A DNA stretch of 64,000 nt from Eledone cirrhosa (taxonomy: Eukaryota): positions 410,626,001-410,690,000 of the forward strand of contig OZ024740.1 of the NCBI GenBank assembly GCA_964016885.1. The letters are read 5' to 3'. Under the pieces are notes generated by a model. The model was not told where the DNA came from and made no database searches. It saw only the letters and a list, made by a program, of their open reading frames with translations. Positions 1,936 through 46,857 of the stretch are shown here, in pieces. Position numbers and translations under genes: made by a program. How positions within the stretch are numbered: position 1 is the stretch's first letter; the number at the start of each line of letters is the position of its first letter.

Positions 1936-2021
1936 TATATATATATATATATATATATATAAATTCGAGCTGATTCCATTGTAAAAGAATTCATTACCTT
2001 ATTAATTATATATATATATAT

Positions 2022-4169
2022 ATATTTATTAAAATAACAGATTAAAGTTTAAGCAAAGGATCGCTGCTTTCACCCCTAACGGGAACGGGATCTTCTGAAA
2101 CTAACAAAGTCAATCTGTGAACGCAGAAGTGAATATTTCAAAAATGTTGCAACCGGAGGAAGACAGGAAGACGATACTTTGTTCCGTCGAAACGTTCCCT
2201 GGCAAAGAACGAAAAAAAACGAATATAATACGTCATTATTTGGAGCGGTGAAAAACAATTACACGCAAAGACAAAATCACGTTGTATCAGATGAAATAAT
2301 GGTATTTAACTAATGTATTGGTACGCGATGGGGCCCACCCACAGCCCCGGCGGACAGAATGGAGAAGGCGTTTCCCCGGAGGACGGCAAGGGAGACGCGC
2401 TGGAAAAGCCACTCCAACTCGCGGGGCTCACACCTGCGGCTCGCCAGCTCAGCGCCTATGGTGGTGAGTAAGGAGGTATAAAAGAAGTCGTCGACTAATA
2501 TTCTATTAGGTGGTTCATAGAGACGTTCTCTGGCAATGAACGGAAAAAACGAAGATAATACGTCATATGTGGAGCCTAGAGAACAATTGCACGCAAAGAC
2601 ATAACCACATAAATGGTATAACTGAAGTCGTAGACTAATATTCTAACTAGGAAACCGAATGATTCTCGGCTTCAGAGTTAAGAATAAAGTAAATAAAATA
2701 CAGAGGTAATTGAAATTAAATAAATAGATACACAAGCATACGCGAAAAATCCTGCCATAGGTATACAAATACAAGCACATATAAATATGTGTGTGTGTGT
2801 GCGCGTGTATACAAATAATTAAATAAACTTATGTAAATAAATACGTATATAACAAGCGCACACACATACCTACATGTAAATACACATATGTTGGGAGACG
2901 TACGTCAACCAAAACACGAAGAGCACATATACACACACCCTACATACGTACGAACCCGCATAATCACACAGACGCAAAACTTACACTTACAGATAACCAA
3001 AAGCATATGTACCAGAATATATAAAATATACGCCATAACATATACAATAAAATATACGTACGAGAAAGTATACGTACTTTCACAAAACATGCAGGTAATA
3101 TATACTTACCTATACAAATAAGTAATGGTAAAAAAAAACATATACTTAGCTACCACATCAAGACGTAAAATATCCGCGTATAGTTGGTACTATCCGTTGG
3201 GGTATAATGTGGGGCTGTATTACAGGAAAGTTTTGTGCAATTTATGTTTACAAGCCAAAATTGTCTCAGATTTTTTGTTTAAGTGTGGTCTATGGCGTAG
3301 AATATTTCCAGGGCCTCAGCGGTGCAGAGGTCCAATGGTCTTTTATTTCCGTTATACAATCTAGCCCTAGCTAGGATCTCGCAGTGTAACTTATATTGGG
3401 TGTGGTTGTCTTTTAGACTCCAGATATAATCTGAAAGTGACGTCATAATCCTTCTTAGAGGGTAACGAAAAGAATGGGTATGCATGTAAAGACGCTGCTT
3501 GAATCTATTGGCGGTTAACCCTATGTAGGCCCTACGGGACGTTTGTGTTTCAACCTTACATTTGTAGACAATGTTACTAGAGTGGCATTTCCCGGATAGG
3601 GGGCAGTCAACCCGATTCTTACAATTACAGTTAGTACTAACTACAGGGTTGCACGTGTTCCTACGGATAGTTAGTTTAGCGAAATTTGAAGCTTTGATGT
3701 TATGTGCAAGGTTAGGAATCGTAGAGTAAGAAATTTTAATAGTATTTCTATTAAAAATGTTACTATATTTATGTGTAGGGGGAAAATGCTTCGTAATAAG
3801 GGAGAGAAAGATCTTAGCTAATGGTGTGGCCACCTCCATATTATACAGTGGGTTATACCATATAATGCGTCGGGATCTATTTCTTCTAGGTCTATTGTAT
3901 ATGCTACCTTATCGACAAATCCACTCCGAGCAAGAGCTTCATTGTAATATGTGCTTCATTGTAATATGTGCTTCATTGTAATATGTGGTCATTGAAGATA
4001 TGCTCGTTAGTAGATAGACGCGAAAGCCTCAAAGAAACGTCTCTTACCAGGTTCTTAGTTATGCTGGCAGGATGGTTAATACATTTTTGCTCTACGGTTC
4101 TTATATATTTGATATATATTTATCCTTATCGAGCCCTCTTTGGATTTTAGTCTTCAAATTTATTATCAT

Positions 4170-4172
<3 letters not shown>
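2022..4172 (-). mobile_element. 5'-truncated Penelope-like element, family A (RT thumb remnant, GIY-YIG, long 3' UTR/pLTR) with inverted terminal fragment at 4078-4172
   Basis: ORF 3279-3839 has CNCKNRVDCPLSGKC..NIVYKC..YIGLT..FKQR..H..SF. Upstream minus frame reads NHPASITKNL..RLSRLS. The UTR matches copies at 11121-12683 and 13431-13718. (TA)n on both sides. Confidence 0.88.
3279..3839 (-). pseudogene. GIY-YIG endonuclease domain of a PLE
   Basis: IVY...YIG motif, FKQR..H, preceding Cys-rich linker. The C-terminus is frameshifted. Confidence 0.88.
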
Positions 4173-4237
<65 letters not shown>

Positions 4238-4323
4238 TTATATACATATATGTATATATATAAACCCCCCCCCCACACACACACACACATAGTGGTGTAT
4301 ACATTTATGTGCATGTGAGAGGG

Positions 4324-5459: not shown

Positions 5460-6120
5460 GTATAAGACAAGAGCTGAACATTTCTTTTAACATGTTAAAA
5501 TATGCCCCACACACGTACAGACACATTCCTACTGACCGATCCCTCTACCACGAATTACTCTGCTACACACGCACACACACACACACTTGTCTTAATAGGC
5601 ACCTGAACTGTTGACCTGACAACATGACTGCAATTCACACACACATCCCTACTGACCATTATCACAACAATGAACCTCTTTACTACTACTACTACTACAC
5701 ACACACACACACATATGTGTCTTAAAAGACTTATTTTTCAGTGACTTCTCAGTCAGCCGAGACAAACCTACATTTGACGCAAAATCAATTTTTAACATTC
5801 ACATGACCTCTACCGACCAATCACAATTGTTTTGACCACAAGAATTTTTGCAACACGAATTGGCGCGAAACTTATTTTAATACATCTGGAGCCACTTTTT
5901 TCACATAAAACAGGTAGAATTTCCCAAACTAATCAAATTAGAGCAAACATCACGGGCGCTGTATCTCAAAATTATTATTGAAAAGCATTAGAAATGCGCA
6001 ATCGGTAAAAACTTAAAACCATAACTGAATACTAACCAATACTTATTAATAATTTTTACTTATTCCCAATTAAACTATTTTTCACTGGCAACAATTTGTC
6101 AGCATTTTCTTTTCCTTTTA

Positions 6121-6170
<50 letters not shown>

Positions 6171-6655
6171 TAAACGGAATAGAAAATGCTGACACATTGT
6201 TCAAAGTTGAAAAATGGTTTAATTAGGAATAAAAGAGTATTAGTGATTGTATGGGTTAGTATTCAGTTGTGGTTTTAAGTTTTTAAGTTTTTACCGGTTG
6301 CGCATTTCTAAATGCTTTTCAAAAATAATTTTGAGATAGAGTGTCCGTGCTGTTTGCTCTGATCTGATTAGTTTTGGGAATTCTACCTGTTTTTATGTTA
6401 AAAAAGTGGCTCCAGCGTTATTTTTGTGTTGCAAAAATGCTTGTGGTCAAAACAATTTTGATTGGTCGGTAGAGGTCATGTGAATGTAAAAAGTTGATTT
6501 TGCGCCAAGACTGTTTTTATGTTAAAAAAGTGGCTCCAGCAAAAATTCTTGGTCAAAACAATTTTGATTGGTCGGTGGAGGTCATGTGGATAAAAAATTG
6601 GTTTTGCGCCAAGATTGAGAAATGACTCTTTCACAACAAATATGTGTGTGTGTGT

Positions 6656-7468: not shown

Positions 7469-8232
<764 letters not shown>

Positions 8233-11120: not shown

Positions 11121-12683
11121 ATAATAAATTTGAAGACTAAAATCCAAAGAGGGCTCGATAAGGATAAATATATATCAAATATATAAGAACCGTAGAGCAA
11201 ATATTTATTAAAATAACAGATTAAAGTTTAAGCAAAGAATCGCTGCGTTCACCCTTAATGGGACCTTCTGAAACTAACAAAGTCAATCTGTGAACGCAGA
11301 AGTGAATATTTTAAAAAATGTTGCAACCGGAGGAGGACAGGAAGACGATACATTGGTTCGTGGAAACGTTGCCTGTCAAAGAACGGGAAAAAACGATAAT
11401 ACGTCATTATTTGGATCGGTGAAAATCAATTACACGCAAAGACAAAACCATGTTAATGGTATAAAAGAAGTCGTAGACTAATATTCTATTAGGTGCTTCA
11501 TAGAGACGTTCTCTGGCAATGAACGAAGATAATACATCATATGTGGAGCGGGGAGAACAATTTCACGCAAAGACAAAACCACGTAAATGGTATAACTGAA
11601 GTTGTAGACTAAAATTCTAACTAGGAAACCGAATGATTCTCGGCTTCAGAGTTAAGAATAAAGTAAAAAAATACAGAGGTAATTGAAATTAAATAAATAC
11701 TTACATGCATACACAGACACGAGCATACGCGAAAACGTTCGCCATAGGTATACAAATACACGCACGTACACAAAAAAACAAAAAAATAAAAAAACAAAAA
11801 AAACCCCCGCACGCACATACATAACCCACGCAACGCCTGTACCCGCTCGCATACGAATGTATACACCAAATACACATAAAAATATATATATAAAAAAAGA
11901 ATATATATGTGTGTGTGTGTGCGTGTATACATATAATTAAATAAACGTATATAAATAAATAAATACGTATATAACAAGCGCACACACATACCTACATGTA
12001 AATACACATATGTTCGGAGACGACGTCAACCAAAACACAAAGTAGACATATACACACACCCTACATACGTACGAAGCCGCATACTCACATAGACGCAAAA
12101 CTCACGTATACACATAACCAAAAGCATATGTACCAGTATATATAATATATACGCCATAACATATACAATCAAATATACGTACGAGAACGTATACGTACTT
12201 TCACAAAATATACAGGTAATATATACTTACCTATACAAATAAGTAATGGTATAAAATAACATATACTTAGCTACCACATCGAGACGTATAATATCCGCGT
12301 ATAGTTGGTACTATCCGTTAGGGTATAATATGGGGCTGTAATACAGGAAAGTTTTGTGCAATTTATGTTTACAAGCCGAAATTGCCTCAGATTATTTGTT
12401 TAAGATTTGTTAAAGGGCGGTGGATTGGCAGTATCGGTAGAGGCTCGGACGCCATACTTTGACGCATAGAGTTACGGCCCTTGCCATTCTGAGTTCAAAT
12501 CCTGCCGAGGTTAACTTTGCCTTTCATCCTTACGGGGTCGATAAAATAAAGTACCAGTAATACACTGGGTAATTGCTGGCCTTGTGCCAAAAGTAGAAAC
12601 AATTATTTGTTTAAGATGTGGTCTTTGGCGTAGAGTATTTCCATGGCCTCAGCGGCGCAGAGGTCACATGGTCTTTTATTTTT
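11121..12683 (-). mobile_element. PLE family A 3' UTR/pLTR copy with contiguous 3' terminus, interrupted by a SINE
   Basis: Colinear with 2022-3350 and additionally carries the terminal ~80 nt (11121-11200). Confidence 0.85.
12407..12601 (+). mobile_element. tRNA-derived SINE with 16-bp TSD
   Basis: A box TGGCAGTATCGG and B box GTTCAAATCC. TSD ATTATTTGTTTAAGAT at 12391-12406 and 12602-12617. The empty site is visible in the paralog at ~3270. Confidence 0.9.
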
Positions 12684-13412
12684 TGGTGTTTGCATAGCTA
12701 CGGCTTCCTAAAACCGTATTTCTTTGGATATAGGAAATATTTATACATATTGTATAAAGCTATGCTTGAAGCGAAATCCTATTTCTTTTTTATTATAAGT
12801 TGAGCCAACTTATGCAGCTTCATATGCAAATGAGATTATATATATAAAAGAAATAGTATTTCGCTTCAAGCATAGCTTTATACAATATGTATAAATATTT
12901 CGTATATCCAAAGAAATACGGTTTTAGGAAGCCGTAGCTATGCAAACACCGGGGGGCTAACGCCCTCTGGTGATGTCCAGCAGAAGCAAGGGGGACAACC
13001 GTCTATGCATTTTGGCCTTCGTCAGGACGGTCCCTCCCACCACTTGCGACTGCTGGACTAGAAGACAGGCGAGAATATATACTTTTCTCGTCTGTGTAAA
13101 TGAAGTGATTAATCTCATTTGCATATGAAGTTGCATAAGTTGGCTCAACTTATAATGAGATTAAATGAGATTAATCACCTCATTTACACAGACGAGAAAA
13201 GTATATATTCTCGCCTGTATTCTAGTCCAGCAGTCGCAAGCGGCGGGAGGGAGCGTCCTGGCAAAGGCCAGTTAAGCCTGAAATGCATAGACGGTTGTCC
13301 CCCTTGCTTCTGCTGGACATTACCTGAGGACGTTAGCTCCCCCCCCCCCCGGTGTTTGCATAGCTACGCCTTCCTAAAACCGTATTTCTTTGGATATACG
13401 AAATATTTATAC
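12684..13412. repeat. Multiply inverted PLE-type terminus (family C) with two complementary decayed HHRs
   Basis: 12684-12792 mirrors 12846-12950, and ~12885-13118 mirrors ~13165-13412. HHRs at 12999-13030 (-) and 13254-13293 (+). Confidence 0.82.
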
Positions 13413-13430
13413 ATATATATATATATATAT

Positions 13431-13800
13431 ATATTTATTAAAATAACAGATTAAAGTTTAAGCAAAGAATCGCTGCTTTCACCCTTAACAGGATCTTCTG
13501 AAACTAACAAAGTCAATCTGTGAACGCTGAAGTGAATATTTCAAAAAACGTTGCAACCGGAGGAAGACAGGAAGACGATACTTTGGTTCGTGGAAACACT
13601 CCCTGGCAAAGAACGGGAAAAAACGAATATAATACGTCATTCATTTGGGCGGTGAAAAACAATTACGCGCAAAGACAGAACCACGTTAATGGTATAAAAG
13701 AAGTCGTAGACTAATATTCAAATAAATATTTGCTCTACGGTTCTTATATATTTGATATATATTTATCCTTATGGATTTTAGTCTTCAAATTTATTATTAT

Positions 13801-13803
<3 letters not shown>
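13431..13803 (-). mobile_element. Short PLE family A copy with inverted terminal fragment (13721-13803)
   Basis: 13431-13718 matches 11201-11486. 13721-13803 is the reverse complement of 11121-11209 with a small deletion. (TA)n on both sides. Confidence 0.85.
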
Positions 13804-13856
<53 letters not shown>

Positions 13857-14329
13857 GATATATTAATTATCTATATTTAACTCCAAATCACTGATTTGTC
13901 GAGCAAACCTGCCAAAACCACTACTAAAAAATTTTTGGTGTGTTAGTAGGCGTCTGTCATCTTACCATCCCACTCCTACCGACTAGCCTCAGTGTCACGT
14001 GATTGATTCTTTAGAATCGGCCATTTGACCAGTGGCAGCGAGAATTTTCAGTGCTTGGAATCCAGTCCTCGATAGCTGTTCCATTTACCGAATTATTATT
14101 ATTTTTATATGAGTCCCCAGTGTCCGCGCATTGCCTGGAGACTTGGCTGAGAATAGACCTCCCTGATGACGCAATGAAATTCTCAACAGTTCATTACGTA
14201 ACTGTCTTTATCCCATTGCAGAAACTAATTAGTTGGAGTGAAAATTTAAGTAAGTTAATTTAAAAAAAATTTTTTTTTTAAATTTTCTTATTTTATTTTA
14301 CGTCTTTTATATATATATATATATATATG

Positions 14330-16297: not shown

Positions 16298-19065
16298 TAT
16301 TTCGTTTCTGAATTTGTTTAGCAAGATTCTTTATCTGAAAAAGTGTGTTGAAACCGATATTGTAATACTTTGGGAGGGTCATGTTACCAATAAGAAACAC
16401 ACGCACCAGTTGCTTTCACTTAAATTTATTATAATAAATTTATAAATTTCTGGTTGGTTGGTTGGTTCCACAACCAGATAGTTGTTTATATATAGTCATA
16501 GTCCTTTCGTCACACATTCTGTGACATCTTCAGTGACTGGGGATTCTTTTCTTTGTTTTTGTGCCTCTCGTTTGTTCTATCCTACGCCATCTTGTTTTCG
16601 TGTGTGTGTTGTATGCTTAGTTTGCGCATGTGTTACATCCGGGTGTCCGTGTGTGTTTATATTCGTTTATTTATTTGTTTATTTGCACGTTACTGGTTGG
16701 TTGTTTGTTCTATGTGCTTGTGTGTTTTCCTTTTGTCCTTAATTGTAAGTTGTGATGTTGCTGTTCCTTCATGTTTTCTATTTAATTTTGGTTGGAGTTC
16801 ATTTATGTTTATTGCCTCTGTGATTTCTCTAAACATTGCGTCTTTTCTGTGTGTAGATTCTATTTTTATTTCTATGTTCTCTAATTTACCCTTTTGTTCT
16901 ATTTTAGCATGTTGGTAGAGTATTGATGATTATTTTTTATCCTGAAGCTCTCGCCAGTATTCATTTAACCGTTCTCCTATACTACGAGCTGTCTCACCTA
17001 TGTACACTATATTCTTATCTTTACATTGTCCTTCAGTACATCTTATGCTATATACTACATTTCTAGTTTTACATTTAATATGGGGGCTCAGTTTACAGAT
17101 TACGCATTTCTTATCTATACAGGGAGGTCTTTGAAAAGGGTATGTATTACTAATAAGTGTTTTTATGGAGGTACCTGGTCTTTCTACTATCTTAATATTA
17201 AGTTTAAGTTTATCTAGGGCCCTTCTAAATTTGTAAGCTAATTCACCTCTAGGAGTTGTATTGATGAACATTACACTCTGGTATTTATTGCTATCATACC
17301 ATGAGTTTATTCTATTAACCTTATTCCAAGTTCTTTCTATTCTATTCCAAAATGTGCTTCTATACAAGGGGCAGGTCCCATTTGTATCATTATTTACCAT
17401 TTTTTCCCCATTTGGTTCTGGCTCCTCTATATACTCTGATTTTATCTCTCTGATTGTAACCAGAGAACTATATACGGTGGATGAAGTGTTGTATGTGTCT
17501 TTCTAGTTCTTTGGAGTTGCACATGCGGGACACATTTCTCATCACCCGTACCAAATCCGCAATCAGTATGTTGATTTTGGTGTGATCCGAAACAGCTGTG
17601 TTTCGGTAGATCAGATATTAGGAAGTCATGGGTTTGGCATAATGGGAATGGAGGATTTGTTTTTTGTTATTAATGGTTTCTAACCAGAATTCTGTTTCCA
17701 ACCATCGATTACCAGTCTAGTACAGGTAATCGATGGTTGGGGTGTTTGCTTGGATAGTCTATAGTAACTCTAATACTCTGGTGGATGGAGTTAGCTATTT
17801 GCTGGATGCTTTCCATGCTGTTTTTCTCTAATTCCTAACTGTTCTCTAGTGGGGGTGTTTTTACTACGATGTTTATATCATCAACGTAGCGGGAGTTCAT
17901 TATCAGGGTTAAGAGTTTGCTGTCTTCTAATTGTTCTTTAAGTTTAAGTTTAAATTTATTGTCCCACCATACCATGAATAGGTTAGATATGTCACCTGCA
18001 ATGCTAACACCAATTGCTGCTCCATCCTCTTGGGCATATGTTTTTCTATTAAATTTGAACACATGTTCCTTAAGGGTTAGTTTTATACTGGCCCCCACCG
18101 CATGTGCAATCATTTTCTTTAGTTCATCGTGGTTTTCGGGGGTCTGTATGGCTCTGGTCCACCCGTTCCATCTTTCTGTGTGGGTTTTCTTGGCCATTGA
18201 GGTAATGGTAGGTGGTCTGCTCTTGCTGGTGTGGTAGGGAACAGGTTGCTAAGGTCATACGTATCTAGATAATCATTACTATAGGTAAGTTTAAGTAGGA
18301 GTCCCAGCTCACTGGTATCAATCCCACGGAATTCAACATTGCTCTCACTGAACATTTCTACGCATTTCTCCACAGCAAAATCCACGCCAATGGATGCATA
18401 TAGGGACACAACATCCATACTACCTATTATACAGTCTGTTAGGTCCCTAGATCGGTTATTTTCGCTGATTCTGCTGAGGAGGTCCTCCGTGCTGTCACAT
18501 ATATCTGGGGACATTTCAATGATGGGGCGAATGATCAGGGAGAGGAAGTAGGTAAGTCTGTAGTTACTAGCAATGTTAGCTCCACACACTGGCCGTGTTG
18601 GTGGTCCTGTGACAGGGTCATTGTTCGTCTTATGGTCTTTTTGAAGCCCATACAACTCTGGCACGTCATTGTTCCAGGCCTGGAAGTTGTTGGCAGTCCT
18701 TTTATTGGGCTGCATTATGTTTGTCTACATCATCATATGGGCATTGAGGGTTTTCTCCCTATCCTCATGCTCTTGTGGTGTTACTTCTCTTGTGTTAGTG
18801 ATGTGGGGTTGCATTGCCTGCATGTAGTTTGACAGACTGTTAACCAACATTCTGCCAGACTTGTCTGTTGGAAAGCATGCAATCTCTCCATTACGCGAGC
18901 GCTGCATGAGCTTACGCAAGCCATTTGCAGATATTTCTTCCAGTTGTTGGGCCTCCATTCTATTTTACTTCTTGCTATACTGTTCTACAATATTTCTAAG
19001 TTTAGATCTAGCTATACTAAATTCTGCTTCGGTTTGTTCATCCACGGTTAGTTGTGGGGTCTAGT
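16298..19065 (-). mobile_element. Penelope-like element, family B: RT + GIY-YIG, frameshifted, with HHR-bearing 3' pLTR
   Basis: ORF pieces 18725-18958 (PTDKSGR), 18119-18715 (PTRPV..GSMDVVSLY), 17835-18197 (QEDGAAIG..RYVDDI) and 16930-17400 (C-rich linker, NVVYSIRC..YIGETARS). Confidence 0.93.
16494..16538 (-). ncRNA. Minimal type I hammerhead ribozyme in PLE family B pLTR
   Basis: AGTCA-CTGAAGA-t-GTCACA gaatg TGTGAC-GAAA-GGAC-TA-TGACT, with stems I and II perfect. Confidence 0.88.
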
Positions 19066-19163
19066 TTGCATGAAGAACTCAATGTAATCCATATGTTAAA
19101 AATGTTGTAGGTTAAAATAAATCCCGGAAAACAATAAAACATCAAAAGGAAAACAGAGTCATG

Positions 19164-21083
19164 ATATAAGTTAAAACAATGAAATAAAAATTCAAGTCAT
19201 TAGAAATATACTTCACTGTTTTACGATCGTTTCTAGGTGATAATAATACACCGTACGCATATTTCGTTATCGATCTATGTAGGGTTAGTTACAAAATATC
19301 AAATATGGAATATATTTACCTACATGTATACCATCAGCCGTTGTCAAAAGCAATGAAAATTTTATTCAAAATCAATAGTAAATTGAGTTCTATGACCTTA
19401 TTTGGATGTAGCCAAAAACCATCTTACGTATGGTTGTAATTGCATAAATAGAAGCGTTTGCTCCTTAAATGGCAACTGTTTGATTAATAATGTAATATAT
19501 AAATGCACTGTGTCTACTACTGACTCCAACAAATCATATATAGGATCTACATCGAACACATTTAAGAAAAGATATTACGCACACTCCAGTAGCTTTAACA
19601 ATACTAAACTAGTTAACACCACATCTTTAGCTGAAGCAGTAAATAACTATACAAAGAAAAAAAATAGATTTCAAGCTATCGTGGAATACCATTCTGCAAA
19701 GAACTCCATATCTTGGGAACAGGAGAGAATGCAGGTTATGTTCCGGGGAGATCTTGGAAATTACTAAATCTAAGGACGATTTATTGAATAAAGGACAGGA
19801 ACTGATTATAGCTTGTAATCACCGTATACGAAAAACATTTAAGTACTATAAACCTAATTAAACACTCTAAATAACAACTCACTATAGTTCTATGTGACGT
19901 ACCATTTGTTAGTATCCCCTTCCCCTAATTATAAGCTTTCCTGTTTATTTTTTTATTTTTTAACCTTTTAATTTTTTAGCTTCCATAGATTCATGCGTTT
20001 CTGACTAAGGGCATCAAGGTACATAACCACCTGTAATTGCATGGGTATACATGTATCTATGTATGTATGATAGGAGAATATATATATATATATGTATGTA
20101 TATATGGGTGTATATGTGTATGTGTGTGTATATGTGTATGTATATGTATGTGTCTGTACATGTATATATGTATGTATAAGTGCGTATATATGTATATATA
20201 TATATGTATATATATATGTTTGTGTGCGTGTATGTATGTATGTGTATATGTTTATATCTATGTATGCGTATGTATGTTTTTAATGGAGTATCAATGTAAT
20301 TATACCTCTATCTATATATGTGAATATATGTACTTTTGTTGTCTAAGAAAATTATGCGTTTTGACTATATGTCAACATGCATTTATCTGAGTTTGATTAC
20401 TTATACACTTGAAAATATCTACTATTTTATATTTTATGATGCATCATATGCTATATTATACTATATACAATGTACCATACTGTACTATATTATACTACAT
20501 TATATTATATTATTATATTATTATATTTTATTATCTTATTATAATTTTCATCTTTTAATATACTATCCTTCCTAGTTATGACCATTACTTTACCAATCTA
20601 TATTTATCCTAGTTATTTCTGTATATTTTATATTTACTTATCTATATTCACCTAAAACTTCCATACAACACAACTCAACCATCTACAATCCACTATCAAT
20701 ATAATAATTCCTTTTTATTCATAGATTCTTTATAGTAATTCTATTTTTAACACCATTTAATCATTCCTTTCAAAGGGTCATGACCTCAACTAAAGTGAGT
20801 TATATTTCATCTTAACATCATATGGCAAAAAACCATTTGATTGGTTTGTTCTTCAGCTACCTCCAAATAAGGTCATAGAACTCAATTTACTATTGATTTT
20901 GAATAAAATTTTCATTGCTTTGACATACATGTAGGTAAATATATTCCTTATTTGATATTTTGTAACTAACCCTACATAGATCGATAACGAAATATGCGTA
21001 CGATGTATTATTATCACCTAGAAACGATCGTAAAGAAGTGAAGTAAATTTCTAATGACTTGAATTTTTATTTCATTGTTTTAA

Positions 21084-21090
<7 letters not shown>
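19164..21090 (+). mobile_element. 5'-truncated PLE with inverted pLTRs flanking a GIY-YIG
   Basis: ORF 19402-19767 has CNC..CSLNGNC..NVIYKC..YIGST..FKKRY..H..SF. Arms 19164-19412 and 20856-21090 are inverted copies. Confidence 0.88.
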
Positions 21091-22460: not shown

Positions 22461-25400
22461 TTCTTCTTGTTTTATAATTTCACAAAGTTTTACCAATAGA
22501 GAGAGAGTCCGTTTCTAACATAGACACATACTCTCTCATTGGAATTTACACAACATCAACTAGGTAGGTATGTATGTATGCATGCATGTGTAGATATGGA
22601 TGTTATTGTATGTGTGGATGTGTATGTTTTGAGTTGTATGTGTGCATGTGTGTATGCTTTGCATCTGTATATGTGTATATGCAGTTATTAGATGCAACAT
22701 TTTTGGAATGTCTTACATATTTTTACTGTTCCATTAATGGATTGTACTTGTAATTTCCTAACTAGTTGTGTTCTTTCTGTTCCTGTGAAGCCTAGCTTCT
22801 CAAGATTTTTATTGAGGCAGTTACTAACATATGCCAGTACCCCAATAATCACAGGCATAAATCTGAAGGTATAATCAGGGTGGAGTATCTGCAGATTTTT
22901 CATCAGTTCTGCATAAATATTCTCCTTGTCGCTAATCTTTGATATTATATTGGCATCTGTTGGACAGCTAACTTCCACTACTGTGCATGCTTTCTTCTCC
23001 CTGTCCCATATCATAATATCTGGTCTGTTATGCCTGCATTTTATTGGGGTTTTTACTGCAACATTCGACCAGTACTCTTTCATATTATGTACATGGATGT
23101 CTTCCATATTGCTGTAGCTTTTAATGTGTTTATTATCGGGTCTATCTTTTTTACGAACTGCATTGTACAGTGTTTTGGCTACTACATCATGGCTCATAGG
23201 TAGATAGTACCACGATGACATATTTGGACAGCTGCTGATGACATGGGTGATATCCTCGATGTTAGTTCTGCTGAGTCTGCACTTGTTATCACATCTAGGT
23301 GTTTTGCCTGCATCCCTATCTCTTTTGTGAATCAGGTATTTCGTGCTAATCTCCTGTTCCTGGATTGCAAAAGCGTATCCTTCAAAGTGGGAGCCAATAT
23401 AGTGGTTGTTGGTCCAAGATAGACTACTTTCCTTATCTATATTACTCTCACTCTGGAGCTTCCTGGCAAGATATCCATGCATGCATTTTTGCTGATAGGC
23501 ATGCAGTTTTTCATCCATGGATTCACTGCGATACTGCTGAGCGACATCCCTGGGTGTGATGTTTTGATTATCACACAGGGAATATCTCTCGAGGAGTTCC
23601 TTCCCAACTCTCATGATCTTATCTGTTTCATGCAGATAGACTTGCTCGAGAAACGGGCTCCTACGCTTCGAGGTTCGTAGATGTTGTCGGAGAGATATGA
23701 TGCGACATTCAAATGTTGTCTGGACTGATGTTAGGCCTCTGCCTCCCTGTTTACGTTTCAAGTAAAGGCGGTCTATGTCACTGTCGATGTGGAAGTTTCC
23801 GGTGTTGTTCAGTATTTTTCGAGTTCCAGCATCAACTGCTCGGATTTCGTCTATCGTCCAATTGAGTATTCCAAACGTTGGTGTTAGGACAGGCACTACA
23901 AACACATTGTGAGTCACTGTTTTGTTTTGCGCAGAGAGTTCCGATGACAAGATCTTTCTTAATCGGGTGTAGTATTCCTTGGTTACGCGTTCTTTATTAC
24001 AGATACCATTATACGATCTGTAGCAGTCCTCATCAGATATCGGTGAAATAGTTAGGCCATTGATGACAATGTTGCTAGATTGGGTTGTTGTTTTCCCCCG
24101 CTTTACAGTCATGTATGAGCATTTATCTTGGCCAAACTCCATCCTATATCCTTTGAGAACGTTGTAACCAGGTCAAGATTTTTCTTCATCTCATCCATGT
24201 TCTTGGCATAGAGTCTCAGATCGTCCACAAAGAAATTAGGGGTTAGGTTCGTATTTCTGTCCTCCTGTGAGCCAATGATGTATCCCCCACATTTCTTGAG
24301 CAGAAAGGACAAGGGGTTTAATGACAAGATGAATAATATCACAGAAAGACTGCCCCCCCCCCCCCCCCTGAAATATACCCCTCAATATTTTATTTTATCA
24401 GTGAAAATAGAGTCCCCCCTTTCTGTCTTTAACCTTAGGATAGTAGCCCAAGAAGAAGACAGCCTCTCTATGGCTCTGACAATAATGTCTGGGACTTTAG
24501 CAAGTTGGAGGGCCTCTATCATCCAAGAATGGGGAATAGAATCAAAAGCTTTCCTGTAGTCCAGCCAGACTGTAGTCATATTCCTCCTAAGTTGTCGCAC
24601 CTCCGACATCGCAATTTTGTTGATTAGGAGTTGTTCAGCACATCCCCAAACCCCTTTCTTTCCAGCTGCTTGTTCATCTGTGATGATGTTCTTATTTTCA
24701 CAGTGATCTTGGAGGAATAGGCTCAGACAGGCTGTATACATCTTATACATCAGGTTCTGGCATGCAATGGGTCGGTAGTTTTTTGCAAAGTGGGTGTCTT
24801 TATTCTTGGGGACCAGTAATGTTTGTGCTAATGTCAACCATTCTGGTATAAGTGTTTCTCCCTTAAGAACTTGTTGGTAGAGGTCAGTAAGATACCTCCG
24901 ATAGAATATCAGTTTTTTGTACCAGTAGCCGACAAACATGTCTCTTCCTGGTGTTTTCTTATCTTGGAGTTTTCCTATCACAGTCTCAAGGGTACCCTCC
25001 CTTATTTCGTATGTTTTTGTTGTAGTGTAGGAGCAATAGTTCTTTCGGATTTCTCTTAACCACACTCCATCATGGATGAAATTCTTCTTTTCACCCCATA
25101 TTTTGCTCCAAAAGGAATCTATGTCTTTTAGGGATGGGCCTCAGTGACACTTATTATTTTGCCCTTCATATCTCTATAGACTGATGTTTGGTTTCGTCTG
25201 AATCTTTTATTATGCACTTTTCTCTCATCTACCTTCTTCAGGTATCGGCGTTTTTCGCTAACGGCCCTCAATTCTTGTTTGAGGGTGATCAGCTTATATT
25301 GGAGAGTTCTGGTTCTACTGTTACCAAACATCGTCTCTATTTTATTTTTCACTCTTTGTTGGTGAGGAGTGAGGTTTTTTTGTGTTTGTTTGCATGTAAG

Positions 25401-26521
25401 GAGCATTGTCACATATCCTATGTTTTTTCGTAGGTCAACAATCTTTTTTTCTATTTTAGTTATATATGATGGTATTTTTGGTGGTGTTTTGTTCTTGGTA
25501 ATATCTCTGCTATCACCAAGATAATGCTTCACTGTCATTGCTAAGGCATATAAACAGGCGTTGATTTGTCAAAATGTTGGGATTTTTATCCGTCGTAATA
25601 TTCATTCCCTATTTCGTCAATAACACGTAATATTTCATTATTTGTTTTTTTATTCAACATTGTCGTTTTAACAACAGAAATATTTATACATGAGTTAATT
25701 TCTCTCTGGAAGATTTCGTTGAGGGAAATTTTCAATTGTTTATATTTTGATTATCCTTATCGATAGTATTTTCCAGAATAGTCGAGGTAGCCTCGGATAG
25801 TACACGTGGTGTCAAATTTCTTCGATTATTATTATTATCGATAGTGTTTTCCCCAGCATTCGAGGTAGACTTAGATGGTACAGGTGGTGTCAAGTTTCTT
25901 ACAGGCATAGTTGTTTCAAGGCGCTGTTCGACCTGGCTGCTAGGAAGTCTAGTAGTATGGCGACCTGTAGCAAGTATTGTTGATAACATGTTTGTTGTGG
26001 GGGACTTACAATTAATACGTTCAACAAACGTCGCTTGTTGGCGTAATTGTTTCGCTGTGAAATAATTTAGCTCTGAGTGCATTTCGTCCCACTGTAGCTT
26101 CATTCTGTTCATATAGCCAATGGAGGGATTGTTTTTTGTCATTTTATAACAATTAAATAAATCATTATTAAGTTCGCAACTCCAAGAGAAATGCGATTTA
26201 TAATTTCGGTTTCTTCTGTAGCTACAACTGAATAAAGTTTGATTACTTTCCTTGTTATTTGTCTTCGATACTTCCTTAATTTTTTTGTTGATATTGTGTT
26301 CAGCCATGTTATTTGTAGCAAATTTTTGTAAAATGAATTATGTATTTAGTCGGATATCTCTACGAATTCGAATAAAAGGTGTCTTCAGAAGGGATAGTTA
26401 GAAGAATAACCAGTTATTCAACCTGACTGTAGTTGTGGCATTACTGTCGGAGATAGTATTCATCTTAAATTTAATAAATAGTCTCCCACGCCAAAATATG
26501 GGACTGTTCGCGTTGACTGTC
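22461..26521 (-). mobile_element. Near full-length R4/Dong-type non-LTR retrotransposon (RT + CCHC + restriction-like endonuclease), frameshifted
   Basis: RT motifs TPGRD, NYRPIAC, WLDYRKAFDSIPH and FVDDL. GGRGL. Degenerate CCHC CRLS..EDITHVISSC. RLE HDVV..RPDI..VEVSCP..KENIY. ORF pieces span 22688-26307. (TATG)n on both flanks. Confidence 0.9.
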
Positions 26522-28000: not shown

Positions 28001-28010
28001 TAGATATGTG

Positions 28011-28250
28011 GAAAAAAATGAAAACGAAAAACGAAATTTCATTTCTCACTCTTAGTATGGCACTTACTTAAATGTAAGTATGTATGTATACGTACATACA
28101 TATATGTATACAGACGTACAGTAGCATATATACATGCTACTGTACGTCTGTATACATATATGTATGTACGTATACATACATACTTACATTTAAGTAAGTG
28201 CCATACTAAGAGTGAGAAATGAAATTTCGTTTTTCGTTTTCATTTTTTTC
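28011..28250. repeat. Perfect palindrome, 117-bp arms with a 6-nt loop
   Basis: 28011-28127 is the exact reverse complement of 28134-28250. Part of an arm recurs at ~28612-28676. Confidence 0.92.
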
Positions 28251-28574
28251 AACTTATCGTTTTCGGTATGCCTGACCGATTTAACTCACTCAATATGCAA
28301 ATTAGGCTGCTCAGCCGTTAATTTTCATAAGGAAAGTATATACTTTCGAACGTTCAACTATCTGGCAGATGGGTAAACGGTGCTGATGATAGCTAACAAG
28401 CTTGAAACTAGTACATCGTTCCTGTGTCAGTGTTGAACAAAAAGGTGACGTGGTTGCCTTAACACCGTATGGCATAAATTCAGGCTGTTCAGTTTGTTGA
28501 CAAACGAACAAAGCAAGCGCTATAATAAGTGTCTGCTAAACTGATGCGTGCATATATGTATGTGTACCTGCATG

Positions 28575-28845: not shown

Positions 28846-30593
28846 ACTTTCTTTTTATTTGCCACCAGGGCATCAAAAGTGGGACAAGTACCATGGGGGG
28901 AGTTTACATAACAAGGCGTCCTCAATATGGAGCAGGCAATAACAAAGTATAAAAATAAAATACAATATAACAAAATAAATTTTATAACAAAATCCTCCAT
29001 AGGGAGGCGGCGCCTTGGGGGGTCGCACACACCCCCGAAAAAAAGTGTGCAACCCTTCTCCTCAGGAGCACAGAGAGGGGTGCTCCCTTGATCTTTCCTC
29101 TTCCTCACCTATAGTCTGATGTAGAGTGAAGGCCCATTCACACGGGCCATTCTCGCCACTTTCACCCATCTTTCATAAAAACGGCTGGGGTGCAGCACCT
29201 CTCTCTCCATCCTGATCCTTCTTCCGAAATGATATCGGAAGAAACGGACCAGTTGTTGGTCAGAGAGAAAGGTGCCTGACTTCAGTCCTTTCAGACGCGT
29301 CCACCATACAACCTCTTTCGCCATGGCTATTACGCACAGAAACACCGCTTCTCCTTCGTTTTTGAAGAGGGGGGCGGCTTGATCGTTACAATAGACTCGG
29401 TGGTAAACCGGATCGGTCTCACCCTTGATAGAAGTTGTTCGACATAGCCCCACAGATCGGTAATGCCCGAGCAGTGTACCAATGCGTGTGCAACGGTTTC
29501 CTCGTCGCACACGCATCTGGGACAAATCTTTTTCGAGGGGTCCCTACCCGGGCGCCCGTGTCTGTAGAGCCTTTCTCGAACGGGCAGAGCTCTTCGGTAG
29601 CACTGCCAGGCCAGAGACCTCTGGAAGTTATCCATGGGTCCCGGGCTGAATGTCCTACCGAACAGGTTGGCCAGTTCGTCTTCCTCCATGCCTAGGGCTT
29701 CTCCGAGGGCGTCATCGTACCTGCTAACCACCAGCCCTCTATAGAATGACGAGGTGGATTCTCCACTGACAGCCGGGTCCGCCTGCCAGAGAGCCGTGAG
29801 CGCCTGGGCACACTAGGTGTGCCAGGCGCCCAGTTTTCTCGGTCTTTGCTTGACCCAGGATTGCAGCTCGGTGAGTGAGACGAGTCTGGTAAAGGCTCGC
29901 CTCACAAACGGGGCCCACACCGGTTGACCGGTGAGGAATACCTGGAGGTGCCGTAGCCTTAATGTGTGTTTACGTATAATTAGCCACGGCATCCCCAGCC
30001 CTCCTTTCGAAGGATGTTGACAGCAGATGGATCTCCTCACCATAGGAGCCCGCTTCTTCCAAAGGAATTGGAAGAGTGCGCGCTCCATTTTGGCGAGCGT
30101 TTCCCTTGGGCAAGGCACAACGGTCAGGCGATAGTAGATGACGGACGCTATATAAGTGTTCGCCACCTCCGCCCGACCTTTCAGGGACAGTTTGCACTCG
30201 GCCCACTTCTGGGTCAGTGCAAACACCCTGTTCGTTACCTCACCCCAGTTCTTCTCCACCTGGAGGTCTGGTCCGAACCAGACCCCGAGCAACTTCACCG
30301 GGCCCTCCGTCCAGCGCCCGACGACGCCATCGGAGGGCATCGATCTGCCCCTCCACGTGCCGAGTTGCAGACCGATCGACTTGTCCCGGTTCAGCTTAGC
30401 CCCTGTAAACCTTTCGTACTCCTACAGTAAGGTGCCGATCGCCCCGATTTCCGAGGCCGTCGACACCATTACTGTTACGTCGTCGGCGTAGGTCGACACC
30501 GCTTTCCGCAATGCCGGTTCTAACGGGATGCCCTGCAACAACTCCAACTTCCGCAGCAGTGGCTCTAGAGTCACTACATACAGAAGGGAGGAG
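28846..30593 (-). mobile_element. 5'-truncated Tx1/L1-clade LINE (RT C-half, CCHC, 3' UTR)
   Basis: [66 protein letters not shown]-rich. Flanked by (GATA/TA)n. Confidence 0.9.
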
Positions 30594-30636: not shown

Positions 30637-31885
<1,249 letters not shown>

Positions 31886-31898: not shown

Positions 31899-32637
31899 TA
31901 TTTCGTTTCTGAATTTGTTTAGCAAGATTCTTTATCTGTAGAAACAAAAATATAGTGTACATAGGTGAGACAGCTCGTAGTATAGGGGAAAGGATAAATG
32001 AACACTGGCGAGACCTTCAAGATAATAAAGAATCATCTGTACTCTACCAACATGCTAAGATAGAACACAAGGGTAAATTAGAGAACATAGAAATAAAAAT
32101 AGAATCTACACACAGAAAAGATGCAATGTTTAGACAAATTACAGAGGCAATAAACATAAAAGAATTAAAACCAAAATTAAATAGAAAATATGAGTGGAAC
32201 AGCAACATCACAACTTACAATTAAGGACAAAATGAAAACACACACACACATAGAACAAACAACCAACCAATAACATGTAAATAAATAAATAAATAAACAA
32301 ATAGATAAATGAACATAAACACACACAGACACCCGGATGTGGCGCATGCGCAAACTGAGCACACAACACACACACAGAAACAAAATGGCGTAGGACAGAA
32401 CAAAGGAAAGGCACGGAGACAAAGAAAGGAATCCCCAGTCACTGAAGAGGTCACAGAGTGTGTGACGAAAGGACTATGACTATATATAAACAACTATCTG
32501 GTTGTGGAACCAACCAACCAACCAGAAATTTATAAATTTATAAATTTGTAAATTTATAAATATATAACAAATTGAAGTGAAAGCAACTGGTGCGTGTGTT
32601 TCTTATTGGCAACATGACCCCCCCAAAGTATAACAAT
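31899..32637 (+). mobile_element. 5'-truncated PLE family B copy (GIY-YIG C-half, pLTR) with inverted terminal fragment at 31899-31938
   Basis: ORF 31955-32224 YIGETARSIGER..HRKDAMFRQITEA. Close paralog of 16358-17020. Confidence 0.9.
32437..32481 (+). ncRNA. Minimal type I hammerhead ribozyme
   Basis: AGTCA-CTGAAGA-g-GTCACA gagtg TGTGAC-GAAA-GGAC-TA-TGACT. Confidence 0.88.
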
Positions 32638-32640
32638 ATA

Positions 32641-33048: not shown

Positions 33049-33204
33049 CAGTCGCGTTACTGCTACTTTATTTTATCGACCCCGTAAGGATGAAAGGCAA
33101 AACTAACCTCTGCGGGATTTGAACTCAGAACGTAAAGAGCCGTAAAACTAGGCCGCAAACCATATTTTCCGATGCACTACAGACTCTGCCAATCCACTAC
33201 CCTT
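33049..33204 (-). mobile_element. tRNA-derived SINE (same family as 12407)
   Basis: ttttatcgaccccgtaaggatgaaaggcaaa..ggatttgaactcagaa..ctgccaatcca. Confidence 0.85.
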
Positions 33205-33267
33205 AACGACAAAAACAACAATAACATAAACAACAACAACAACAACAACAATAATAATATCAATAAT

Positions 33268-33420
33268 GATTTCTACTATAGGCACAAGGCCAACAATTTG
33301 GGGGAGGGGAAAGTCAATTAAATCGACCCCAGTGCATTAGTGGTGCTTTATTTTATCGACCACGATGAAAGCCAAAACTAACCTCGGCGGGATTTGAACT
33401 CAGAACGTAAAGAGCCGTAA
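33268..33420 (-). mobile_element. tRNA-derived SINE, 5'-truncated
   Basis: ggcacaaggcc..ttttatcgacc..aacctcggcgggatttgaactcagaa. Confidence 0.85.
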
Positions 33421-36108
33421 CTCTATGCTGAACGTTTTCTTTCTTCAAGGAAACCAAGAAAACCTGAATTGACAGATAATTGTGAGGAAAATGAAAAAAA
33501 AAGGAAACAACAGAAATTATGAAAAACAAAATCTAAATTAATAAACAGACCTCCAGAATGCCATGAATAAACGATCCATAAGTATAAACCAGCTTCCGGA
33601 AACCACCAGAAGTAGAAAAGGAGGTAGAACACGGTAACTATAGAATATATGGAGTCAGAGAAGAAACGATTAACGACATTATCTCTTCACAAAAAAGGAA
33701 TATATCCACAGGTATGTTAGAGTTGGGATTTTTAAATACTGGAGGTTATATGCCAATGGAACGAAATATCAATAGAAAAATAAAGACGGTACAAACATAC
33801 ACTAGAAAAGGTGCCAGAGAATGAGAAAGTTACTATACTCTCGGATAGTCCAATACATAGATACAGGGAGATCAAAGCCTACTGACCAGATATGTTAGGA
33901 GCAAATGTGGCATATTACCATTTCAACTTAGCCTATTCCATTCAACATGATAGTTACTGGCAGAAAAAAACTACCCTTCTGGTGGTTTTCTGCTAGCATC
34001 TGTAGTGTCAATATTGATATTATACGCAAGTATATATGCATGTAGATATGATACATTAAATAACATCGTAATTGACAATATACACAGAAATTGAACGAAG
34101 ACTGCGTTATATGTAATCAGTAACTTAATACATGATACATAAAAAAAAAAAAAATGATATGATATATAAACTGCATTAGGAGAAAATTAGTGACGGAAAT
34201 ATATGTATGTTTATTTAAGCTAACCGGAAGTGTTAACATTTGAACATTTTAAAGAAGTGAATCTTTAAATAAACAATAAAATATATTTAATCAACAGCTA
34301 CGAAATTTAGTAGATAAATTATGTAATATTCATTCATTATTTATTCAAAGTAATCCAACTTATTTTACTAATGGGATAACAAATTATAAACCGTACTCAA
34401 TCCGGCACTCCTTACTTTATTATAGTTTAGATTTATATCACAAGAATTTATTTAACTTTTGATTTCCTCCTATTTTCATGACCTAGCCTTATATAACTAT
34501 CTTAGAATTTGTCTTTTTATTAGATTCACTTTCATTTATTACAATGTTTCAGTCAATGCACTCTTTCTAATATTTGACTATTATTTACTAAGTCAACTTA
34601 TTTTTAGCTTCTTTATATTTTACATTGTTTGTCTTCAATCATCACATTGTACGTCCCTTTTTTATATATTTACCCATTGCCTGCACTTTTCCAATCTTCT
34701 TTGCTTACAGCCACCCCATTTCTACACGTTTCATCCTCCTATAAAATTGATTATCTTTATATACCACTAACTTCATTATTTGCCACCAATTCTGCACCCA
34801 TACTGTCCTTGACATTTTAAACCCGCAACTCTCCTCTAATAACTCTTCCGTTCTCCGTCAGGATTAAGTTTCCCTCCTTATTTACCCCATAATAAATATA
34901 ATTATATTTATTCAAAGTTGAGTCTTCGGGAGTCGTTATTTAGTTTCCCATTGTCGAACGTCAAGCGACAAAATTTGTATATTAACAATATGCTTATATA
35001 AGTGATTGGATGGGATGAAAATCGAGGCTGTAATAAGAACATATGTAGAAAGCAAAAGAAGAAATGTATTAACCACAATACAACGACCAGCTGGCAAGAA
35101 CAAACAGACACACCGTTGTCTAACGCAGACCAGTATCATACTAAAATCTCTCTATGCTAATGACTGAAGAAAACAAAAGAATCCGAATAGTAATATACTA
35201 TATTATTGGTTAAGATTATTATAATAATATAAAGCTGTATAATATATTTACAAGTATGACTTTAAACTGAAAATAATTGTTTCATATACCGACATATACC
35301 AGATTTTAAACAATTTTATAAACTGGAATTGAGTCCTGCTATGTATCTTTAAATTTTCAGAAAAAATATATGATTCTTCACTGTTGGCTATCAGTATAAA
35401 TAACATTCCTCCATAATTAATATTTAGTTATAAATAAGGCAACATAATATGACAACTGAAAAGATGAGTTTAAAGTCAGATGAACATCCACTTGTTTCTT
35501 TTATTCATGAAGAAGGAAACTCGGGTGACGTACCGTGTAATTACAACATTCCCGCTTCGCAAATGACAAATCTCTCTTTCAATTTTGTCAGGTGAATGTC
35601 TGAGAGTCTTGATGGATACAATGTTTATTCAATCTTTCTGGTTCTTTGTATATTAATAAATCGATATGAACAAAAGCAGGCACACACACACATATACACA
35701 GACACAAACACACACACAGGTACACAGACACAGACACACACGTGCACACATTTATAATTACACACACGCGCATATACACATACAAAACAAAAGACTGTAG
35801 CTGAGACAGTAGTTATCTAATAAGAAAACGCATGTAATGTTGAAGCTTTTGTAATTTGTTCACCATGTCTGGCCATATATCAGGGAGCGCGATTAAATTC
35901 TATTACTATAAATAGCGCTAATGTGGTCGTGCAAACATTTAAAATATCTAAATTTGACCTATATATCAGTCCGGAGAAGATCAGAATTGATTTTATAGAA
36001 ATTATTTTAGTGGAGCTGGTGGATGTAGATTGATGCTGACCAGAAGATATGAGAAAGGAAGTAAGGACCTTCTAGCGTCATAAATATAATTAATGCTACT
36101 ACCAAAAG

Positions 36109-39633: not shown

Positions 39634-39812
39634 ATATATGTATATATATATATATATAATTCGAATTAAAAGATATATATATATATATGTAGGAGGTGAG
39701 TTTTATTGTAGCACAATAAAGCAATGCAAATATCGGATAAGTAGCACTCCACAGTTTATAGAACTGGAGTATAAATAATATAAGATCAAAAGATGGTTAA
39801 AAGAGTTCCATG

Positions 39813-39883
39813 TATTTTATTATGCGCATTTCAAAAACAAATATCATCATGGGATGATATTTGCGTTCTCATCAGATAAAATA
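39813..39883 (-). ncRNA. Type I hammerhead ribozyme with long stem II
   Basis: TATTTTAT-CTGATGA-gaacgcaaatatcatc ccat gatgatatttgttttt-GAAA-TGCGCA-TA-ATAAAATA. The 3' half is repeated inverted at ~39950-40015 and again at ~41172-41226. Confidence 0.9.
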
Positions 39884-40009
39884 GGGAGACATGAAATGAA
39901 GCTTAAAAAACACTTGCGAGCAGTGAAGTGTTAAATCAACATATATGACATTTGTTTTTGAAATGCGCATAATAAAATACATGGAACTATTTTAACCATC
40001 TTTTGATCT

Positions 40010-40056
<47 letters not shown>

Positions 40057-40064
<8 letters not shown>

Positions 40065-40949
40065 TCACAGGAATCAAAGTTATGTTCAAACCATTTATTA
40101 GCTTACAATTGTTTCATCCAAACCGAGGCTTGGATTCTTCGGACCATTATTTAATGTTTGTATACATTCATGACCTCCTTTCCAACGCAAGAGACATACA
40201 GATACATATGTATATATTGATGTACAGTGGGGTGACATATATTATATTATTTCTGAATGGCAATTTAAATTCAAAAATTAAAATCATATTAAAACAGAAT
40301 CAAAGCAAAATTAAAATTAAAATATACATCGGCAGTTAACGTAGATAATGCAAGAGGATATTTTGTTAGTCAGTTGTAGTAGTTATTGTATGCATTAGTT
40401 ACACGTGGGGCATGCACGTGTGTCTTATTTATATATGATTATTGTGCGGCAGGGTGTTATATGCAATACAAGCACTTTAAGCGGGTAATCAAGAGTATTA
40501 TGGAGGTAATCTTGATTACCCGCTTAAAGTGCTTGTATTGCATATAACACCCTGCCTCACAATAATCATATATAAATAAGACACACGTGCATGCCCCACA
40601 TATAACTAATGCATACAATAACTACTACAACTGACTAACAAAATATCCTCTTGCATTATCTACGTTAACTGCCGATGTTGTATTTCAATTTTAATTTTGC
40701 TTTGATTCTGTTTTAATATGATTTTAATTTTTGAATTTAAATTGCCTTTCAGAAATAATATAATATATGTCACCCCACTGTGCATCAATATATACATATG
40801 TATCTGTATGTCTCTTGCGTTGGAAAGGAGGTCATGAATGTATACAAGCATTAAATAATGGTCCGAAGACTCCTAGCCTTGGTTTGGATGAAACAATTGT
40901 AAGCTAATAAATGGTTTGAACATAACTTTGATTCCTGTGAATTCTATAT
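40057..40949. repeat. ~0.9 kb fold-back element (~437-bp arms, 15-nt loop) with a decayed HHR in each arm
   Basis: 40057-40494 is the reverse complement of 40510-40949 with few mismatches. CCGAAGA..GAAA-CAATTG-TA at 40100-40145 (-) and 40860-40905 (+). Confidence 0.88.
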
Positions 40950-41105
40950 AACTGCTCTGTAGAACAACTGATGTTATTACATTGAGCTATTTATCTTACT
41001 GGTAATAAGGTAGTAATAAATTACTGCCTTCCACTGTTTAGGGTTTAAAATATATATAACTATAAAAAGTTTTAGTATATACATAACCATAAATAGTATC
41101 CTTAA

Positions 41106-41179
<74 letters not shown>

Positions 41180-46472: not shown

Positions 46473-46857
46473 CAAACATTCATAAAAAATAATTATAAAT
46501 GTATTTACACACAAACATGCATCTACGTCTACGTCAGACATAAGTAAATACAGATGCTCACACATGCTTATTAACATACGCGATGTATGAATATACATCC
46601 GATAAAATCAACAGGTACATTCAGTACCATTAGAAAATGCAGAAGAAAAACTACAGCACATTTGTTGGATAACCGTTAAAGTGTTGATGAACGCACGATG
46701 TTCTTTACGTAAATAACTCATAAAAAGTCTTACGTGCACAAATCGCTCCATATATCCATACATACTCTAGATACCCCTATCCAAAGTAGTGTACAACGTG
46801 TTCCCAAAGAATATACTTTATGATAGATCACTCGCGCACTTAAACATTTGAAAATAA

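Follow-up and report, generated by a model that had tools for sequence, protein, structure and literature searches.

Fixed start sites at the two ends of inverted Penelope-like insertions in (TA)n repeats of Eledone cirrhosa

A tail and inverted pLTRs are known from Penelope-like elements (PLEs) of the Penelope/Poseidon and Naiad groups, among others (PMC3846280, PMC8557442). How the inverted repeats and the tail are made is called "undefined" in one part of PMC8557442, and is left open in part of PMC11167929 as well. The window, by which is meant here the whole stretch of 64,000 nucleotides of Eledone cirrhosa DNA that was analysed, contains a copy that puts the question in a simple form. A 5'-truncated body (2022..4077, minus strand) begins beside a (TA)n run (2007..2021), and a short tail in the opposite orientation (4076..4172, plus strand) closes the far end against a second run (4173..4262). 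The original prediction was that this is the product of twin priming, with both cut strands of the (TA)n target priming one RNA, one strand at the 3' end of that RNA and the other at a fixed, AU-rich internal site. What process, then, delivers two such ends to a single insertion?

The elements and their layout

The window, part of contig C1 of a 3.0-Gb assembly, was aligned with itself with simple repeats masked, and majority references for two families were built from fetched loci. In the family A reference, position 1 is the first base after (TA)n and the body starts at 87; in that of family B, the body starts at 60. The tail end is called site 1, the body start site 2, and the sequence running inward from either site an arm. 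Site 2 lies inward of site 1 by 86 nt (A) or 59 nt (B), and the one-sided tail has these same two lengths.

Mapped on its reference, the site-2 arm of the first family A copy runs from 87 to 1970 and holds the 3' UTR and the C-terminal, GIY-YIG part of the open frame (3279-3908); it reads through 2102 (minus strand), the counterpart of reference 161, where transcription would start. Its inverted tail arm covers 97 to 1 and overlaps the body start by 11 nt. A third copy has its site-2 arm at 13431..13719 (minus strand; reference 87 to 375) and its inverted tail arm at 13721..13803 (plus strand; 95 to 1, with a 12-nt deletion), beside a (TA)n run at 13804..13863. The prediction that these two copies begin their bodies at one nucleotide beside (TA)n, with the tail inverted at the far end, is therefore borne out, since 2022 and 13431 are both reference 87. 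Tail and body overlap by 9-11 nt in the inverted family A copies of the window. Tail and body are contiguous in another family A copy, a site-1 arm (11121..12681, minus strand; reference 7 to 1260) whose tail is missing its outermost 6 nt and beside which no site-2 partner was seen; its counterpart of reference 161 is 11275. It is broken at ~12407-12601 by a short dispersed repeat, of which further copies lie at 33049-33428, 46851-46976 and 47540-47718. This repeat may be a SINE; where it interrupts the family A arm, a direct repeat of 16 nt borders it on either side.

Family B had been noted to share this layout, and it does so, with one coordinate to be corrected. A site-1 arm (16298..19140, minus strand, its 5' limit set by hand) holds the tail (16298-16356), the body, and a broken RT plus GIY-YIG open frame. 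In the inverted copy, a partial tail arm (31899..31938, minus strand; reference 1-40) adjoins (TA)n, and a site-2 arm in the opposite orientation (31937..32639, plus strand; reference 729 to 60) is followed by (TA)n. The 19 nt between them (reference 41-59) are absent, as had been claimed; the body ends at 32639 rather than 32637.

The family A unit, of ~3.27 kb, has in its majority reference a single 709-aa open frame with RT followed by GIY-YIG (YRDD, YIG). A Pfam search with three pieces of family A gave no match at E<=0.1, while family B gave weak matches, each of them under the cut-off, to RVT_1 (E 0.004) and to GIY-YIG (E 0.002). Judged by motifs, then, the two families are probably EN+ PLEs, each with one open frame joining RT to a C-terminal GIY-YIG. 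The Hydra clade, as described in part of PMC8557442, has RWK, DKT, a CxCX5C linker, a late CxxC and CxH in the nuclease, a C-terminal GIY-YIG and a (TA)n target. Family A, with RWR, DKT, CNCRNRVDC (the CxCX5C linker), CDLC and CKH, agrees with that description in DKT, the linker, the late CxxC/CxH, the C-terminal GIY-YIG and the target, and would be of the Hydra type by this motif match; it departs from it in its length (the clade being "generally <3 kb"), in RWR for RWK and in its candidate hammerhead core, CAGAAGA. Family B appears to be of the Neptune/Nematis type, sharing with such PLEs, as they are described in part of the same paper, DKSG, the C-terminal GIY-YIG and a CX4CxxC linker (PCIDKKCVIC before VYIGET), which falls within the CX2-5CxxC expected upstream of GIY-YIG.

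The pLTRs come from partial tandems, with tandem units in four loci (L166, L172, L162 and L158), and inverted arms are found in most loci. One near full-length family A copy (L172, C1:49841075-49844725) has an intact 5' pLTR and a 3' pLTR lacking 32 nt across site 2. Candidate hammerhead cores were found by eye (CAGAAGA..GAAA in A, CTGAAGA..GAAA in B); that of the third family A copy, CAGAAGA-stem-GAAA, lies at 13455..13507 (minus strand; reference ~111-163), where 13505 is reference 161. An Rfam search of three loci (L166, L182, L199) returned no hammerhead family, only low-complexity miRNA matches, and the predicted folds give the hammerhead only in part, without its three stems. Ribozyme cleavage was set aside as the main cause of arm stops, since few arms end near the predicted cut (~115).

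Five more families in the window (7549-8057, 12847-13412, 30783-31883, 39778-40014 and 40061-41109) likewise have arms head-to-head between (TA)n runs, and each carries additional sequence on just one side, measuring in that order ~25, 42, 129, at least 85 and ~160 nt; most lack a linked open frame. A short (TA)n-flanked inverted element at 1515-1935 starts with the same base at both ends (GGAAAAAGTATGACC) and has internal (TA)n runs; no tail was seen in it. Near-perfect palindromes persist in the assembly at 28003-28258 and 40061-40944, with arm identities of 97.7% and 96.0%. The opposite geometry occurs at 5774-6612, where two related arms stand tail-to-tail around a central (TA)n (6124-6167); a single repeat has probably been hit twice here. 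Abutting the family B copy on its 5' side is a third PLE-like element (19169-21085), which has inverted ends and includes a GIY-YIG piece (19396-19767, plus strand, Pfam E 5e-4). The window also holds two broken non-LTR retrotransposon open frames of other types (22688-26337 and 29109-30421, minus strand) and a 15-kb satellite (48934-64000) that has a unit of 30-33 nt in ~486 copies and stays open in several reading frames.

Two start sites and their pairing

Both families being high-copy, copies were sampled by means of exact patterns that fixed a single end, and the sequence at the other end was then read. Because they were taken from the initial portion of contig C1 and through exact-match anchors, the sampled copies are weighted toward young ones. 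Genome-wide, (TA)n joined to site 2 has 11,189 exact matches in family A and 11,170 in family B; (TA)n joined to site 1 has 10,322 and 10,083, respectively. Reversed patterns gave no matches in either family. Both starts thus lie beside (TA)n far more often than chance allows, and the fixed AU-rich body start that had been predicted is found in both families. The context on the cDNA strand is similar at both family A sites (GCCAAATA/G and GCAAATAT/T), and 3-4 nt of it match (TA)n. An apparent third start, at about position 50, proved to be an alignment artefact.

Do the two ends occur together? Convergent ends less than 7 kb apart, among the first 100 matches listed per pattern, paired site 1 with site 2 in 22 of 25 cases in family A (p = 8e-5 against 50%) and in 44 of 49 in family B (p = 4e-9 against 50%). 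A few pairs of the same type exist (L176, L272 and L402), and by coordinates they number 3/25 and 5/49; one apparent site-1 to site-1 pair (L162) was either an alignment artefact or tandem read-through.

Reading the far ends by sequence gave the same answer. Among 92 site-1 arms of family A, the far end was site 2 in 51 and site 1 in a single insertion, seen from both sides; the other 39 were longer than the stretch fetched, single-armed, solo tails or paired with a very short partner. A further 34 tail-anchored arms, sorted into the same classes, gave 21, 1 and 12. Of 30 family A arms anchored on site 2 instead, 14 had site 1 at their far end, and in none was site 2 found there. In family B, 30 arms anchored on site 1 ended at site 2 in 16 cases and at site 1 in none, with 14 others, while 18 of 30 anchored on site 2 ended at site 1, and again none at site 2. 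These sets have some insertions in common.

Such a pattern could also arise if one rearranged ancestor had been spread by segmental duplication. This was rejected, because flanks, truncation points and junctions differ among copies; twins are rare (L320/L321, counted once). The tabulation of copies bears out a fixed body start combined with variable truncation. An assembly artefact is an unlikely source of the inverted joints. Short-read contigs (runs X1-X3, from one sample that is possibly the assembly's own) contain many joints of body to inverted tail; the window's own junction is spanned by no listed piece from these runs. It is likely that the insertions consist of two RNA-templated arms begun at fixed sites.

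The RNA and its copies

What was copied? Inner arm ends in family A cluster at 157-161. The pattern ...GAAACT followed by C, where the reference has A, has 1,532 matches, and 70 of 75 inspected rows stop there. With G or T in that place, there are 1,202 matches together, and 17 of 30 stop, which gives an estimated ~1,430 stops at 161 with C against ~680 with one of these two other bases. Among 106 arms that end elsewhere, 7 have C as their first foreign base. The C occurs on both types of arm; of 13 junctions whose two arms extend to 161, chosen for one C, 11 carry it on both. Beyond it the bases vary, and only the C is constant; splicing was rejected as its source for this reason, there being no fixed upstream exon. 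On the sense strand, position 161 is the A of TTAGT, which we take to be an initiator-like motif. An untemplated G at the 5' ends of L1 and SVA retrocopies is explained, in part of PMC4859970, as a copy of the cap. By analogy, a capped sense RNA would start at reference 161.

The cap C is clear in family A only. Family B has 904 head-to-head junctions near position 292-305, with an extra C after 302 in a few cases, one of them on both arms; most are ambiguous, the next templated base being G. The family B hot spot, at B reference 285-300 (16584-16597 in the window), falls at a GCCAT(C/T)TT motif; read on the RNA strand this is AAGATGGCG, which resembles a YY1 site as found near transcription starts.

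These observations suggest a mechanism. The arms would come from two fixed positions flanking the tail, and would stand head-to-head because, once (TA)n has been cut, the same capped sense RNA is primed by the DNA end on either side. We put the probability of this reading at about 0.6. The GIY-YIG nuclease would cut both strands within (TA)n, and each 3' end would be set on its own site, site 1 for one strand and site 2 for its opposite, by 3-4 nt of UAU/AUAU pairing, and would prime there. The polymerase that starts from site 1 would then either stall at the occupied site 2, leaving the layout of the window and solo tails, or displace the first cDNA and continue. Arms primed in the 5' pLTR would be short, the template running out at the cap (161), and those primed in the 3' pLTR long; the two cDNA 3' ends would finally be joined by microhomology or a template jump. 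The tail would appear at one end only, because it is simply the stretch between the two sites.

Of the original twin-priming reading, this retains the two arms, the fixed starts, one of each per insertion, and the signs of a sense RNA. It does not retain priming at the RNA's 3' end: there is no poly(A), and in tandem family A copies site 1 runs on into the 5' UTR, ~50 nt before the open frame. Nor does it retain near non-overlap. Of the tail arms in 57 simple two-arm insertions of family A, 15 fall short of site 2, 11 overrun it by no more than 17 nt, and 31 continue further; for 20 in family B, the numbers are 2, 1 and 17. A tail that stops where the body begins, expected as the rule, is thus the minority class, and extensive overlap, which the original prediction had named as grounds for its own rejection, is common. 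This counts against a single RNA as well, since overlapping arms on one RNA require strand displacement.

Two RNAs could have been copied instead, or two pLTR copies of one tandem RNA, an alternative that we consider unlikely. Here, an asymmetric dimer would hold two transcripts of the same locus, one at site 1 and one at site 2. Frequent long overlaps would need no displacement, and the C on both arms, as well as the absence in family B of the stall described below, would be accounted for. So would the bases that overlapping arms share. In family A, non-consensus bases common to both arms occur at 29 of 3,457 sites (0.84%, against 0.12% in the control; 23 insertions), and in family B at 49 of 2,135 (2.3% against 0.34%; 15 insertions). 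Rare variants are shared about 7-fold more than between arms from different insertions, while the arms differ at 4.1% (A) or 1.8% (B) of sites. Gene conversion may also have produced such sharing.

The partners of capped arms bear on the same choice. A hand-made list of 49 insertions, from which mirror rows, one twin, partnerless arms and five rows not stopping at 161 were omitted, includes no partner that passes 165; in the general sample, 30 of 57 site-2 arms (p = 2e-5) and 12 of 57 site-1 arms (p = 0.007) do so. Two RNAs would not lead one to expect this, as full-length sources offer both short and long primeable regions, although sources producing only short RNA could mimic the absence of long partners. 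Two RNAs also supply no simple reason for the pairing of one site with the other or for the stall at site 2 in family A. Shared variants and cap-limited partners together seem best fitted by one RNA and fit two RNAs from one source locus as well; this is the weaker step in the argument.

The stall itself is seen in family A. Of 103 arms that reach 87, 31 end by 104, while 4 of 72 end in the next 18 nt (p = 4e-5). The stop rate at 87-104 is 1.67% per nt, 3.4 times the 0.49% of an equally AT-rich stretch (49-72), and the peak is present in each of two separate samples (20/69 and 11/34). No stall was found at site 2 in family B (0/28). In about 14 of the 31, the partner arm extends to 105 or beyond; the others are solo tails (~7), paired with very short partners, or unpaired, and the solo tails and very short partners may reflect later collapse of a palindrome.

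This raises a second, improbable, alternative, which concerns the stall and not the start sites: long palindromes being unstable, inverted overlaps might have been trimmed after insertion, so that the non-overlapping layout of the window is secondary. Solo tails between (TA)n runs suit deletion of a whole palindrome between ATAT repeats, and site 2 is AT-rich and itself palindromic (AAATATTT). Slow collapse is nevertheless not favoured, because copies in the peak are no more diverged than overlapping copies (2.9%, n = 7, against 4.8%, n = 28, these being small numbers). Against trimming stands also the bimodal distribution of the site-1 partners of capped site-2 arms, 8 of 30 ending at 83-104, none at 105-130 and 13 at 156-161.

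Were the arms made one from the other? In 75 family A insertions (the arm ends of L094, L157 and L121 having been corrected by hand), the site-2 arm is longer by more than 10 nt in 46, the site-1 arm is longer in 10, and 19 are symmetric. The site-2 arm is also the longer in all three inverted copies in the window. At junctions without inserts, inverted microhomology averages 3.0 nt, against 0.71 by chance (41 of 57 junctions qualify in A, 8 of 20 in B). It is the order of arm lengths, together with the cap C on both arms, that points to two separately made cDNAs in opposite orientation, which is what twin priming implies at the level of genomic sequence.

A single priming followed by fold-back (snap-back) copying and by cleavage of the resulting hairpin at site 2 by the nuclease (the "EN-mediated resolution" of PMC8557442), is accordingly a very remote prospect. 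It does predict one end of each type, shared variants, junction microhomology and an excess of symmetric junctions (the 19 of 75 compare with 8.0 expected on shuffling), and snap-back is known with R2 proteins, as part of PMC11371274 describes. Yet fold-back needs a site-2 arm no longer than the site-1 arm, which the 46 insertions and the window copies contradict unless most arms were shortened after insertion; a cDNA begun at site 2 has no tail to copy; and to form a junction like GAAACT-C-N-G-AGTTTC, a loop of 1 nt would have to be bridged in priming. Least credible of all is the suggestion, in part of PMC3846280, that self-priming on antisense RNA makes the inverted structure before integration, for although head-to-head arms and palindromic junction hot spots (reference 158 in A, 152 in B) suit it, the untemplated C is found, on one arm or on both and inside TTAGT, where cDNA templated by the sense strand has its 3' end, and a fixed fold-back polarity does not yield both orders of arm length.

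In four loci (L095, L158, L298, L389), arms switch, without a change of orientation, from the pLTR to sequence that lies just downstream of site 1 (reference 3155-3273). Two of these (L158, L389) read the tail a second time. Such arms point to repeated re-priming or template jumps.

Known systems and what the pairing would mean

Extension at one end, inverted 5'-truncated copies as bounds, partial tandems and (TA)n targets are all shared with known PLE insertions, as described in parts of PMC3846280 and PMC8557442. The tails here, of 86 and 59 nt (~25-160 nt in the other families of the window), differ from the 30-40 nt quoted for PLEs. The tail is attributed in part of PMC8557442 to resolution by the nuclease, and the inversion in part of PMC3846280 to self-priming on antisense RNA; those parts contain no counts of paired ends and no cap signature.

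A close parallel comes from Poseidon PAc of Anolis, which in vitro starts at two internal sites bounding the tail (Frangieh 2024, PMC11167929). According to part of that paper, PAc cuts and extends both DNA strands at AT-rich targets, is predicted to act as a dimer, and uses uncleaved sense RNA as template; the start site is not different between strands, and later steps are unvalidated. Families A and B resemble PAc in their two internal starts bounding the tail, in the probable extension of both strands and in their AT-rich targets. They belong to different clades, and their sites match the target by 3-4 nt, unlike the PAc site, described there as non-homologous. The main text of PMC11167929, in part, and a text search of three supplementary files do not link the start sites within one insertion or address the inverted arm. 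Pairing of both start sites within one insertion was not found in the literature searched, and papers beyond it may hold it. The tail and the two internal starts are, of course, already published; what is new is genomic evidence on mechanism and the pairing within one insertion.

Twin priming in L1 was reportedly described by Ostertag and Kazazian in 2001. In part of PMC12016303, it has a first primer at the poly(A) end, a variable second start and a median overlap of 12 bp, and accounts for 18-22% of insertions. The likeness, by that paper and part of PMC4859970, lies in two cDNAs from two target strands, put head-to-head in a 5' inversion, with an untemplated cap base. The differences are that here both starts are fixed and internal, that overlaps are long, and that at least 51/92 site-1 ends have this form. 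The poly(A) end at which the first L1 cDNA starts has no counterpart here, and the small gap or overlap of L1 is enriched in family A only (within 17 nt in 11/57, against 1/20 in B).

Countable footprints, namely paired starts, a cap base on both arms and cap-limited partners, thus argue against both published explanations and point to a mechanism with two primers, which the existing in vitro system could test at once. It is conceivable, at somewhat less than even odds, that programmed twin priming is the normal route of integration for nuclease-bearing PLEs, with a dimer setting the two ends of a double-strand break at fixed sites on one capped RNA. If so, reverse transcription would create both junctions, and the insertion could be anchored without any further second-strand priming on cDNA. 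The tail, inverted pLTRs, solo tails and short pLTR-only palindromes would all follow, across at least two clades. PLE annotation would gain a rule for boundaries, and the thousands of (TA)n-flanked palindromes in this genome would have an explanation. Twin priming, a side reaction in L1, would then be a programmed route in the group of retroelements closest to telomerase.
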